The notes beneath the pieces were generated by a model, which was not told where the DNA came from, ran no database searches, and worked only from the letters and a program-made list of their open reading frames with translations. Shown one piece after another: positions 3,288 through 38,450 of a DNA stretch of 64,000 nt (its first letter is position 1; every line of letters begins with the position of its first letter). A program made the position numbers and the translations under genes. The DNA is from an uncultured Candidatus Saccharibacteria bacterium. GTDB taxonomy: Bacteria; Patescibacteriota; Minisyncoccia; Phycocordibacterales; UBA6065. The stretch spans positions 14,570-78,569 of the forward strand of contig CAZBVG010000002.1 in NCBI GenBank assembly GCA_964495425.1, in the 5' to 3' direction.

Positions 3288-3935
3288 TTGCGTATGTTTT
3301 CTAAAGATACTCTTCATCACGCATATTTTATTGAAGGCGAAAAGGCTGCGGTTTTAGCTGAACTCGAAACTTTTTTAAATGACGCGTTTAAAATTTCTCG
3401 CCAAGGTAATCCTGATGTTCATTTTGCTGAGCATGAGTCATTTGGCATTGATGAAGGTCGAGGGCTTCAGGAAATGCAGTCCTTGCGACCGGTGATGGGT
3501 GATAAAAAGATTTTTATACTTACAATCGGTGCAATTACACACGAAGCTCAAAATTCGCTCCTCAAAGTATTTGAAGAACCAACTCCAGGCACGCATTTCT
3601 TTTTAATTTCTTCTTCACAAAGAATATTATTGCCAACACTTCGATCACGAATGGTAATTGTGACGCACGCATCTGCAGCTAAAAGTGACATGAAAGGTGA
3701 GGCACGGAAATTTATTCCTATGTCACCTAAGGCTCGCCTTGAATTTGTTGCACCATTGATCGAGGAAAAGGATAAGGCAAAAGCGGAAAATTTTTTACAA
3801 GCAGTAGTAACTGAACTTCATAAAGAGGGTAAGTTGGAAGCGGTACGAGAAATATTGCCGCTTATCAAATATCTCAAGGATCGGTCATCATCACTTAAAC
3901 TCATTCTCGAGCGAACAGCCCTTCTTGATCTCTAG
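3288..3935 (+). CDS. holB: DNA polymerase III delta-prime subunit-like protein (short form)
   Basis: HAYFIEGEK start and FEEPTPGTHFFLISS...LLPTLRSR clamp-loader motifs. Confidence 0.6.
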   Translation: MRMFSKDTLHHAYFIEGEKAAVLAELETFLNDAFKISRQGNPDVHFAEHESFGIDEGRGLQEMQSLRPVMGDKKIFILTIGAITHEAQNSLLKVFEEPTPGTHFFLISSSQRILLPTLRSRMVIVTHASAAKSDMKGEARKFIPMSPKARLEFVAPLIEEKDKAKAENFLQAVVTELHKEGKLEAVREILPLIKYLKDRSSSLKLILERTALLDL

Positions 3936-21062: not shown

Positions 21063-21134
21063 TGACCCTACGGGGAATCGAACCCCGATTTAAAGCTTGA
21101 GAAGCTTCTGTCCTAACCATTAGACGATAGGGCC
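21063..21134 (-). tRNA. tRNA-Glu(CTC)
   Basis: Reverse complement GGCCCTATCGTCTAATGGTTAGGACAGAAGCTTCTCAAGCTTTAAATCGGGGTTCGATTCCCCGTAGGGTCA folds as a 72-nt cloverleaf: 7-bp acceptor stem, GGTTCGATTCC T-arm, anticodon loop TTCTCAA. CCA is not encoded. Confidence 0.85.
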
Positions 21135-22704: not shown

Positions 22705-23778
22705 ATGGAAACAGCTGTACTTGTAGTGTTTGCGATTGTCTTGGTGGCCCTTAATATCGGGATTCTCTTTTTTATTCTACGAAAAAAGCCTGAGCCAAAG
22801 CAGGATGATAGTTCAATGAGACTCCTGTTAGATCAAATGAATGAGCTCAATCGGACTGTTGATAAAAAAATTGGTGAGACGAATCGCACGATGACGGATT
22901 CGATGCGAACACAATTTTCAGAATCACAGAAACTTGTCGATAAATTTCTGAGGGAAGTTACATCGATGGCCGAAAAGGTTACTCGAGTAGAGGAAACAGG
23001 CAAACAGATGGTTGGCTTCGCTGATCAGCTTCAGAATCTTCAAGACATTTTAAAGAACCCAAAACAACGAGGTGTTCTAGGAGAATACTATCTTGAAGCC
23101 CTCCTTAAAAACGTTCTTCCTCCGGGAAGCTATCAAATGCAGTATGGGTTTAATGATGGGGAAATTGTGGATGCTATTGTACGCGTGAAAGAGAAAATCA
23201 TCCCGATCGATTCAAAATTCTCGCTTGAAAACTACAACCGCCTAGCAGAAGAGAAGAATGAGGCCGAAAAAGTTCGTCTCGAGAAGTTATTTGTAACGGA
23301 CCTCAAGAATCGAATCCAGGAAACATCAAAATACATTCGTCCAAGTGAAGGGACCATGGATTTTGCGTTCATGTTCATACCTCACGAGGCAATTTATTAT
23401 GATCTTTTGGTAAATAAAATTGGTGCAATTACGGAAGATACAGACAACCTCATTCAGCGAGCTGCAAATAAATACAAGGTGATCATCGTTTCTCCAACAT
23501 CATTTTTGGCGTACCTCCAGACAGTTCTTCAGGGTCTTAAGGCGATGCAAATCGAAGAGACAGCGAAAGATATAGTTCAGCGAGTGGGAGAATTGGGTAA
23601 ACATCTCAAGGCATATGAGGAATTTCATAATAAATTGGGTAACAACCTGGCTACGGTGGTTAACCAGTACGTTTCTTCTTCAAAGGAGCTTAAGAAAGTT
23701 GATAAGGATGTTATGAGGATCACAGGTTCTACAGCTGGACTTGATCCAGTTATGGTAGAGAAGCCGGATCTCGAATAA
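22705..23778 (+). CDS. rmuC: DNA recombination protein RmuC
   Basis: N-terminal TM helix, long coiled coil and a C-terminal RmuC region (MFIPHEAIYYDLL...VIIVSPTSFLAYLQ). Confidence 0.8.
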   Translation: METAVLVVFAIVLVALNIGILFFILRKKPEPKQDDSSMRLLLDQMNELNRTVDKKIGETNRTMTDSMRTQFSESQKLVDKFLREVTSMAEKVTRVEETGKQMVGFADQLQNLQDILKNPKQRGVLGEYYLEALLKNVLPPGSYQMQYGFNDGEIVDAIVRVKEKIIPIDSKFSLENYNRLAEEKNEAEKVRLEKLFVTDLKNRIQETSKYIRPSEGTMDFAFMFIPHEAIYYDLLVNKIGAITEDTDNLIQRAANKYKVIIVSPTSFLAYLQTVLQGLKAMQIEETAKDIVQRVGELGKHLKAYEEFHNKLGNNLATVVNQYVSSSKELKKVDKDVMRITGSTAGLDPVMVEKPDLE

Positions 23779-35867: not shown

Positions 35868-36314
35868 ATGAAGATTGTAATGCTCAAAGACGTAAAGGGA
35901 GTAGGGAAGAAGCACGATATAAAGGCCGTTGCTGATGGCTTTGCGCTCAACTCTCTTATCCCACAGGGACTCGCTGAAGTGGCGACCGATAAAGCTCTTG
36001 CTCGAGTTACTGTAATAAAGAAGCAGGAGGAAGCTGAAAAGAAGATCCAGGCTGATCTTCTCTCAAAGAACATCAAATCTATTCATGATGCGGTTGTTGA
36101 GGTAACTGTCGGTGCTAATGAGAAAGGACATCTTTTCGCAGGTCTTCATGCGGCTGAGATTGCTCCACTCGTAAAGGCTTCAACTCAGATCGACGTAGCC
36201 CCTGAATTCCTTGTTCTCGAGAAACCGATCAAGGAGGTAGGTGATCATAAGATCGATGTGAAAGTTCAGGGCAAGACAGCGACATTCACTCTTAAGGTAA
36301 AAGCAAAGAAATAA
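35868..36314 (+). CDS. rplI: 50S ribosomal protein L9
   Basis: [37 protein letters not shown]-terminal domain. Confidence 0.85.
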
Positions 36315-36316
36315 GA

Positions 36317-36345
36317 AAATCCCCGCACTCGCGGGGATTTTTGTT
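36317..36345 (+). terminator. rho-independent terminator of rplI, one of two near-identical hairpins flanking a GC-rich insert
   Basis: AAAATCCCCGCActcGCGGGGATTTTTG. Confidence 0.8.
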
Positions 36346-36600
36346 GTGTGGTAGTCTGCATCTCGGAACCTCCAAAACTATATGATTATTCCTGATGATG
36401 AAGCTGAAGAAACTCCCCGTCGTATGGGGAAAGGCGGACTACTCCTCCTTGCTGACGGCACAGATGCGCTTGATGCTATCGTAGCCGCCGGTGTAAAGGT
36501 GGGGCAGGGCAAATTACCTTCGCCCACCCACCGCCCAAAGCTCTTTATTTTCGATCCCCTTAGGGACCCAAACCATAGGCGTCAATGAATTTCAAATAGC
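36346..36600. other. GC-rich 250-bp element between convergent rplI and rpmA, bounded by twin hairpins
   Basis: GC far above flanking sequence. It contains a 68-aa ORF of doubtful coding quality. No tmRNA, SRP or RNase P motifs were recognised. Confidence 0.4.
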
Positions 36601-36629
36601 AAAAGCCCCGCATCTCGCGGGGCTTTTTT
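36601..36629 (-). terminator. rho-independent terminator of rpmA (twin of the 36317-36345 hairpin)
   Basis: AAAAGCCCCGCAtctcGCGGGGCTTTTTT. Confidence 0.8.
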
Positions 36630-36630
36630 A

Positions 36631-36903
36631 TTAGTCTATGTTTACTACGTTCTTTACTTTTGTCTTTCCGTTGAATCCCATCTTTCGCTTTGTTGAGTTT
36701 CGGACGGTGCCTTCCTTTGTTGCGTAGATCGTATAGTCCTTGCCGATATCTGTGTTCTTACCAGGGAGAGTATTGAGACCTTCCTGTCGGATGATAATTG
36801 AACCGATCTTTGCCTTTTCACCAGCGTAAAGCTTCACACCCAAATATCGTGGGTTTGAATCTCGGCCGTTTTTGACTGTACCACCTGATTTTTTTGTTGC
36901 CAT
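36631..36903 (-). CDS. rpmA: 50S ribosomal protein L27
   Basis: [29 protein letters not shown] bL27 signature. Confidence 0.9.
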
Positions 36904-36962: not shown

Positions 36963-37436
36963 ATGCTTAGGTTTCGAAGTATAGCCCAAACCCTCACTAA
37001 AATCAAGGGTTTGGCTAGCAAGCTTACTACGGGGGACATGTATACCTCTTTTTACCTTATATTGGCTCTATTTTCTGGGTATTTTTGGGGTGCTTTTACT
37101 GAAGTAAGGCAAGAAAGAATTCCTCTACAGCTAGAAAGATTTGAGCCGATATTTCCAGAGCCGACCCTATCAGTATGTGAACCAATATCTGGGCCTATAA
37201 ACGCACCAGGACAGGCCGCACTCCTGAAGCGGGAACAAGTTCAATCTGGTGTCAAAAAGCCTCTAAATGAGCCAAATACAGGCCTATATGTGGGATCAAA
37301 GTCCGGATCTAAGTATCATTTACCAAATTGTCCTGGAGCGCAGCGAATTTCGGCTGAAAATAAGGTCTGGTTTGCTTCAAAAGAGGACGCTTTGGCTAAA
37401 GGATATACGCCGGCGGCAAACTGTAAGGGGCTTTAA
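36963..37436 (+). CDS. hypothetical membrane-anchored protein with a C-terminal Cys/His motif reminiscent of the Ada-type zinc-binding domain
   Basis: TM helix YLILALFSGYFWGAF; C-terminus GSKYHLPNCPGAQRISAENKVWFASKEDALAKGYTPAANCKG. Confidence 0.4.
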   Translation: MLRFRSIAQTLTKIKGLASKLTTGDMYTSFYLILALFSGYFWGAFTEVRQERIPLQLERFEPIFPEPTLSVCEPISGPINAPGQAALLKREQVQSGVKKPLNEPNTGLYVGSKSGSKYHLPNCPGAQRISAENKVWFASKEDALAKGYTPAANCKGL

Positions 37437-38150: not shown

Positions 38151-38230
38151 AACAAAAGACCACTCCGCAAGGGGTGGTTTTTTGTTGTAAAGAAAAAATC
38201 CACGACGCTCTATCGTGGATTTTGCTATGG

Positions 38231-38434
38231 CTAGGCGGCCGCCGGAGTATTCCGTGCCGCGATGTGCAAGAGGTCAGCCTCGGCGATGTTGTGGGTTGTG
38301 AGGATGACGGTGAGCCTCGAACGTTCTGCTGCCGTTGCTGCCATATCCTTACCAACAATTGCAGCATACTCGAGTGCTGCCGCAATGACTTCAGGCTCGC
38401 AAGCCCGTGTTTCCTTGATTGAATGGAGCTTCAT
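38231..38434 (-). pseudogene. GC-rich gene fragment; the peptide resembles the H-loop region of an ABC-type ATPase
   Basis: RLTVILTTHNIAEADLL resembles the TVllvTHdleEA region. It is a 67-aa isolated ORF in a GC-rich patch with overlapping ORFs on both strands. Confidence 0.3.
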
Positions 38435-38450
38435 GCAATGGGAGTAACTA

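Follow-up and report, generated by a model that had tools for sequence, protein, structure and literature searches.

A small, probably protein-coding gene framed by paralogous terminator-like hairpins in the rplI–rpmA gap of a patescibacterial genome

In the 64,000-nucleotide stretch of DNA analysed here (the window), from a member of the Patescibacteria (Paceibacteria/Parcubacteria), the genes for ribosomal proteins L9 (rplI) and L27 (rpmA) are convergent and separated by a 316-bp gap. We consider it likely that the DNA between the two hairpins in this gap is a small protein-coding gene, orf68, framed by two paralogous bidirectional terminators. A first-pass annotation had given the coordinates of the gap accurately, and both hairpins lie where it had placed them; its reading of the DNA between them as an inserted element or a structured RNA is revised here. 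The features of the locus are as follows.

35868–36314, + strand: rplI, ribosomal protein L9, 148 aa (Pfam L9_N 1.9e-17, L9_C 2.7e-10)
36316–36341, both strands: hairpin T1, AAAATCCCCGC-ACTC-GCGGGGATTTT, 11-bp stem with an A-tract and a T-tract at its flanks
36349–36357, + strand: candidate extended −10 element TGGTAGTCT, a weak match picked out by eye
36382–36588, + strand: orf68, 68-aa protein, from the list of open reading frames, with homologues in loci L009 and L006
36601–36627, both strands: hairpin T2, AAAAGCCCCGC-ATCTC-GCGGGGCTTTT, 11-bp stem
36631–36903, − strand: rpmA, ribosomal protein L27, 90 aa (Pfam Ribosomal_L27 2e-26)

Each hairpin consists of a perfect 11-bp stem with 6–7 GC pairs and a loop of 4–5 nt. 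The calculated folding energies on the two strands are −19.1 and −18.0 kcal/mol for T1 and −19.8 and −20.3 kcal/mol for T2, and the z-scores of the folds range from −4.6 to −6.4 on either strand. Each hairpin is flanked by an A-run and, on its opposite side, a T-run, which gives a hairpin followed by a U-tract on both strands. The distances to the neighbouring stop codons are short: T1 begins 2 nt past the stop codon of rplI and T2 12 nt past that of orf68, and the end of T2 lies 3 nt from the rpmA stop. With a stable GC-rich stem, a U-tract and a position just 3′ of stop codons, T1 and T2 have the form of bidirectional intrinsic terminators. T1 would be the end of the rplI transcript and would also block antisense read-through from rpmA, and T2 would be the end of orf68 on the + strand and of rpmA on the − strand; termination of transcripts at both sites is predicted from the sequence. 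The proposal that the boundary hairpins mark the ends of an element gives way to terminators that frame a gene.

The two hairpins had been described as near-identical copies, and this holds: their differences amount to one compensated pair (T:A to G:C) in the stem and a single base in the loop. The CCCCGC...GCGGGG stem is found at two sites in the 64 kb, both of them in this gap, against an expectation of zero from shuffling. Our own scan of the window found about 12 other terminator-like hairpin sites, every stem being different, so the likeness of T1 and T2 is specific and not a house style of the genome. T1 and T2 are paralogous copies, and the compensated pair argues that their stem is under selection.

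The evidence for a gene between the hairpins comes from two other Paceibacteria that carry homologues of orf68: L009 (73 aa) and L006 (65 aa). BLASTP aligns orf68 with the L009 protein at 37% identity over 52 aa (E 2e-8) and with that of L006 at E 2e-4. A blind phmmer search over 82 loci, comprising 10,570 ORF segments, links orf68 to L009 (E 2e-6) and L009 to L006 (E 3e-5), and found no family members beyond these three. All three known members are 65–73 aa long, lie on the rplI strand in the rplI–rpmA gap and begin with aligned M-I-x-P starts; they share the core G-[LS]-x-x-L-[SA]-D-G-T-[DH]-x-x-[DE]-A-[IL]-x-x-x-G-[VI]. The family evolves fast, at 30–37% identity compared with 76–80% for L9. 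In the 24-codon core, orf68 and its L009 homologue differ at 11, 6 and 19 sites at codon positions 1, 2 and 3, respectively, and at 13 of the 23 identical residues the codons differ. Turnover at third positions together with conservation of the amino acids indicates selection on a protein and not on an RNA. orf68 had been set aside as a low-quality ORF, which does not agree with its conservation in L009 and L006 or with this pattern of substitutions. The first-pass annotation had also suggested comparing the rplI–rpmA junction in relatives, and had named a conserved protein-coding gene there as the finding that would count against its own reading; L009 and L006 carry just such a gene in the gap.

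Public gene callers already predict orf68 (P0001), and the L006 homologue was called by JGI (P0002). The exact orf68 protein is found on seven contigs in public assemblies, for which one distinct place is reported, namely the rplI–rpmA slot. In the two places that were retrieved (SRR6747781 and an ENA assembly), the DNA is 100% identical to that of the window, so these copies offer no polymorphism within the species for a test of selection.

A structured small RNA, encoded on either strand between two bidirectional terminators with the ORF being incidental, was also considered, since the segment is bounded, for transcription in either direction, by hairpins of terminator form. Over 36345–36600, the fold of the minus strand has a z-score of −2.5, with 2 of 200 shuffled sequences folding as well, whereas the plus strand reaches only −1.4. 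RNAalifold on the three homologous regions gives a weak consensus of −14 kcal/mol across some 300 columns; its covariation term, at +2.3, is unfavourable, and the conservation described above lies at the amino-acid level with third-position turnover. At gathering thresholds, Rfam reports only a tRNA (21063–21134) in the whole window, and no family near this region. A permissive Rfam search of 36200–36750 scores at best 30.7 bits where the threshold is 50, and its matches are terminator look-alikes at the two hairpins (Leu_leader, rimP and Phe_leader). ARAGORN finds no tmRNA or tRNA in the region. The first reading had recognised no tmRNA, SRP or RNase P motifs, and these Rfam and ARAGORN results bear out that no known RNA family is present. 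The suggestion of a structured small RNA, in contrast, is countered by the modest z-scores, the weak consensus fold and the codon-like substitutions, and we hold it very improbable.

Regarding the protein itself, database searches returned nothing beyond the family. A profile of the three sequences and orf68 alone, searched against 5.8 billion proteins, recovered only orf68 itself and the L006 protein, and phmmer against 1.84 billion representatives recovered only orf68. There was no match to orf68 in Pfam, NCBIfam, PHROGs or PDB (profile search), and a scan of JGI metagenome contigs and viral contigs with a pattern from the family profile yielded no relatives. The protein is acidic at its N-terminus, its conserved core has a single predicted helix, and its tail is basic and rich in proline (example peptide GGLLLLADGTDALDAIVAAGVK). 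AlphaFold2, run on the single sequence, gives a pLDDT of 62 with one helix at residues 27–35, a model too poor for a fold search. The core holds a motif resembling G-D-T-x-x-x-A-L-x-x-x-G-V, which we take to be reminiscent of beta-grasp or ThiS/2Fe-2S-like proteins; such a fold was rejected, as the protein lacks cysteines and a C-terminal GG and matched no profile. Our best guess is a small and largely disordered binding protein. It would most likely act through binding a partner, and a partner related to translation is guesswork drawn from its fixed place between ribosomal genes. The orf68 family may accordingly be viewed as a candidate lineage-specific factor associated with translation.

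The expression signals of orf68 were compared with those of its homologues and neighbours. A promoter scan of the + strand, which requires both hexamers, found no consensus promoter for orf68. The candidate −10 box TGGTAGTCT lies 24 nt ahead of the ATG, about 20 nt more than in L009, where TAGACT stands 7 nt ahead of the ATG in a leaderless layout. TAGACT also occurs in L001 at the equivalent spot past hairpin 1. The box-to-ATG spacing in both L009 and L006 is compatible with leaderless mRNA. A promoter at 36349–36357 is possible, and orf68 is probably transcribed on its own. No Shine–Dalgarno motif precedes orf68; such motifs are rare in the window (5 of the 43 long genes have a similar one), so its absence is uninformative. 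In the window at large, −10-like boxes (TATAAT, TATACT, TAGACT and TAGAAT) are seen 6–8 nt ahead of many ATGs, for example at 22705, 3294 and 14868 on the + strand, and several genes on the − strand likewise have a −10-like box ahead of the ATG. This arrangement suggests that leaderless mRNAs are widespread in this Paceibacteria genome.

The same features bear on whether orf68 is a decaying or non-functional ORF, the remnant of a once-functional small gene whose expression has ceased in this genome. The lack of a consensus promoter, the additional 20 or so nucleotides between the −10 box and the ATG, the tiny and fast-evolving family and the low-confidence structure model would all fit decay. 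However, the reading frame runs unbroken over its full length and keeps both the conserved start and the core, and rplI and rpmA share the long spacing, with a −10-like box about 20 nt before the ATG and also without a Shine–Dalgarno motif. We regard decay as unlikely, and retain a functional small gene as the preferred reading.

The composition of the inter-hairpin DNA had been taken as a sign of foreign origin. The 259 bp between T1 and T2 are 50.6% GC, compared with a window mean of 42.1% (sd 4.7, 200-nt windows). The earlier statement that GC lies far above the background is right in its direction and overstated in its degree: the segment falls within the top 2% of windows of equal size and is no outlier. 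The GC contents of orf68 at codon positions 1, 2 and 3 are 0.70, 0.45 and 0.45, and the value at the third position matches those of rplI, rpmA and the S41 protease gene (0.35–0.45). The raised GC comes from the amino-acid composition (Gly, Ala, Pro, Asp and Arg) through codon positions 1 and 2. Since GC3 equals that of the neighbours, the inter-hairpin DNA is not compositionally foreign, which removes this part of the earlier reading. Coding DNA rich in Gly, Ala, Pro, Asp and Arg codons with raised GC can mimic foreign DNA, and caution is needed where GC content is read in this way.

Other small or weakly assigned ORFs lie near this locus. Just past rpmA, at 36963–37436 on the + strand, a 157-aa protein has a C-terminal Ada-type zinc-binding domain below threshold (PF02805, E 8e-4, 19.8 bits against the Pfam cut-off of 23). 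By eye, sequence related to this protein seems to be present in the rplI–rpmA gap of L005, where rpmA is inverted, on the opposite strand. At 38174–38447, three overlapping ORFs of 61–82 aa on both strands coincide with a local GC peak of 57.5% (38200–38399); public gene calls select a 67-aa ORF on the minus strand (38231–38434). This may be another small GC-rich orphan gene.

To place the gap among relatives, loci were collected by a search with the L9 protein, 80 of them from genomes that represent species and a further 80 from metagenomes. Those with names belong to the Patescibacteria (Paceibacteria/Parcubacteria and allies). In 132 of these loci rplI lies next to rpmA in convergent orientation, with a median gap of 105 bp. 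The gap is at most 150 bp in 80 of the 132, often with a single shared hairpin, and exceeds 300 bp in 37. In most relatives it measures 30–140 bp, which upholds the view that the inter-hairpin DNA is extra: it is accessory. The ORFs in the long gaps are small, one or two of 35–200 aa on either strand, and for the most part unrelated; no integrase, tRNA or mobile-element gene is found in the gap. The rplI–rpmA gap is thus a hotspot for gain and loss of small accessory genes, and it recurs as such in Paceibacteria, whose genomes are very reduced.

Two further kinds of gap content were seen among the relatives. In one sub-clade, a single near-perfect hairpin of about 110–130 nt fills the gap in place of a short terminator or gene (L013 2902–3021, L015 2082–2224, L091 538–663 and L092 2944–3086). 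In L007, two tiny and very basic ORFs at 3501–3617 and 3702–3812, each followed by its own hairpin, encode 38 aa (MARNKSTKSAKKSPRTARKQSKARK...) and 36 aa (MAIPSVTIRKGKGRIYRMKVKKKPIRFLQYPRYRRR) with a composition like that of ribosomal proteins. L090 is identical, and neither ORF has homologues among the compared loci.

The history of the hairpins and their cargo was read from comparison with L001. Its L9 protein is identical to that of the window, and the DNA is about 84% identical over the locus. L001 keeps T1 (28 of 28 nt) and T2 (31 of 32 nt), and the 337 bp between them (3476–3812) show no similarity to the cargo of the window; homology between the two ends at the inner foot of each hairpin. 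This L001 cargo has a candidate ORF of 79 aa (P0003) and, overlapping it in a different frame, another candidate of 65 aa; the 79-aa ORF is an orphan, found nowhere else. The T:A versus G:C difference is common to the window and L001, so the duplication of the hairpin is older than their split. At least one replacement of the cargo took place after that split, inside a fixed hairpin frame.

The hairpin type can be followed into other loci. The CCCCGC hairpin is found on the rpmA side in L001, L003 and L007/L090, in the last two beside other cargo, and in the distant L040 it is the single shared terminator. Conversely, in L006 and L009 the homologues of orf68 have flanking hairpins unrelated to the CCCCGC type. 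From this distribution, the hairpin goes with the locus and not with the cargo. T2 is the copy that occupies the position of the rpmA-side or single shared terminator of the relatives, and T1 and T2 would both derive from the terminator type that adjoins rpmA, or is the sole one in the gap, in those relatives. L003 is the closest other species (L9 91% identical) and the most informative relative, and is unreadable at this spot: exactly 100 N run from the rplI stop to the CCCCGC hairpin (3445–3544, CAYJCZ010000004.1), either a scaffold gap or a masked stretch.

These comparisons bear directly on whether a MITE-like or hairpin-recombined cassette inserted into a terminator shared by rplI and rpmA, duplicated it and is exchangeable at the hairpins. 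Such a cassette would account for paralogous hairpins unique in the window, for the unrelated cargo of L001 with its break of homology at the inner feet, and for the moderately raised GC, and the 100 N in L003 replace DNA at exactly the same spot. However, the segment is single-copy in the 64 kb, with T1 and T2 as its sole inverted repeats; the hairpin type stays with the locus under other cargo or none, whereas L006 and L009 carry their cargo homologues between unrelated hairpins; GC3 is native; the cargo ORF of L001 is itself an orphan; and recombination in the rplI and rpmA flanks, which are 95–98% identical, accounts for the swap without site-specific machinery. A blastn search for further copies, which the first-pass annotation had recommended, returned only the self match of 36342–36600 in the 64-kb window, and the 162 related loci hold no copy of the cargo at any other place. 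The ends of the cargo (36342..., ...36600) are not complementary by eye. Lacking terminal inverted repeats, single-copy in the 64 kb and with conserved coding capacity, the segment does not have the properties of a MITE; nor is the palindrome dispersed at many sites, as in REP/BIME elements, its two sites both being in this gap. The earlier suggestion of a MITE-like insert or captured fragment is therefore disfavoured by the lack of a second copy, the locus-bound hairpin and the protein-coding cargo, and we judge a mobile cassette of this kind quite improbable.

Returning to orf68 as a small gene between terminators, the slot between the hairpins would gain, lose and swap small ORFs. In a rough neighbour-joining tree of L9 and L27, the three carriers of orf68 fall into two clades that are sister to each other, with non-carriers scattered among them; the tree did not include the locus of the window itself, whose place was taken from its closest relatives, L001 and L003. 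Because orf68 is also present in the rplI–rpmA slot of the sister clade, it is probably the older occupant of the slot, and losses and replacements would have followed. rplI and rpmA are 91–98% identical between L001 and the window, compared with about 80–85% for the neighbouring genes, and this better conservation makes them good anchors for recombination. Exchange of cargo would most likely proceed by ordinary homologous recombination anchored in rplI and rpmA, which we regard as the simplest route; no observation calls for a mechanism specific to the hairpins.

The twin hairpins could instead form an exchangeable cassette slot, acting themselves as recombination substrates with no integrase nearby. 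The basis of this idea, which we hold to be very improbable, is that two congeneric genomes share the hairpins almost to the base and have unrelated small genes between them. The hairpins would, for example, fold in single-stranded DNA like integron attC sites, or template switching would occur at the stems. If true, small genes would be shuffled into the rplI–rpmA gap of Paceibacteria. A candidate duplication of the rplI stop, the AAATAG ahead of T2, was discarded; it is absent in L001, and five matching nucleotides in A-rich sequence carry no weight.

On the preferred reading, a hypothetical small gene with standard terminators that gene callers already predict, biology at large is little changed, and the region can be compared with known systems. 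Like MITEs and REP/BIME elements, it has short GC-rich palindromes in a gap between convergent genes. Unlike them, it has only two copies of the palindrome in 64 kb and neither a short target-site duplication nor cargo that is repeated, and the cargo codes for a conserved protein. Integration hotspots with core-gene flanks occur in bacterial pangenomes. The rplI–rpmA gap resembles these in that the flanks are conserved and syntenic in 132 loci while the gap varies and holds unrelated cargo; it differs in that the slot is miniature and holds no integrase, tRNA or mobile-element gene. Bidirectional intrinsic terminators between convergent genes are described for E. coli in a bioRxiv report (10.1101/2022.10.23.513370). 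T1 and T2 share with such terminators the GC-rich 11-bp stem, the A-tract and T-tract and a position 1–12 nt past the stops of rplI, orf68 and rpmA. The difference is that here two paralogous copies 285 bp apart frame an extra gene, whereas most relatives have one shared hairpin. Lastly, orf68 is similar to the uncharacterised small proteins of Patescibacteria/CPR in being short, lineage-restricted, without a Pfam or NCBIfam domain and already called (P0001 and P0002), and it stands apart from them in its position, which is fixed between two ribosomal genes in three divergent genomes.
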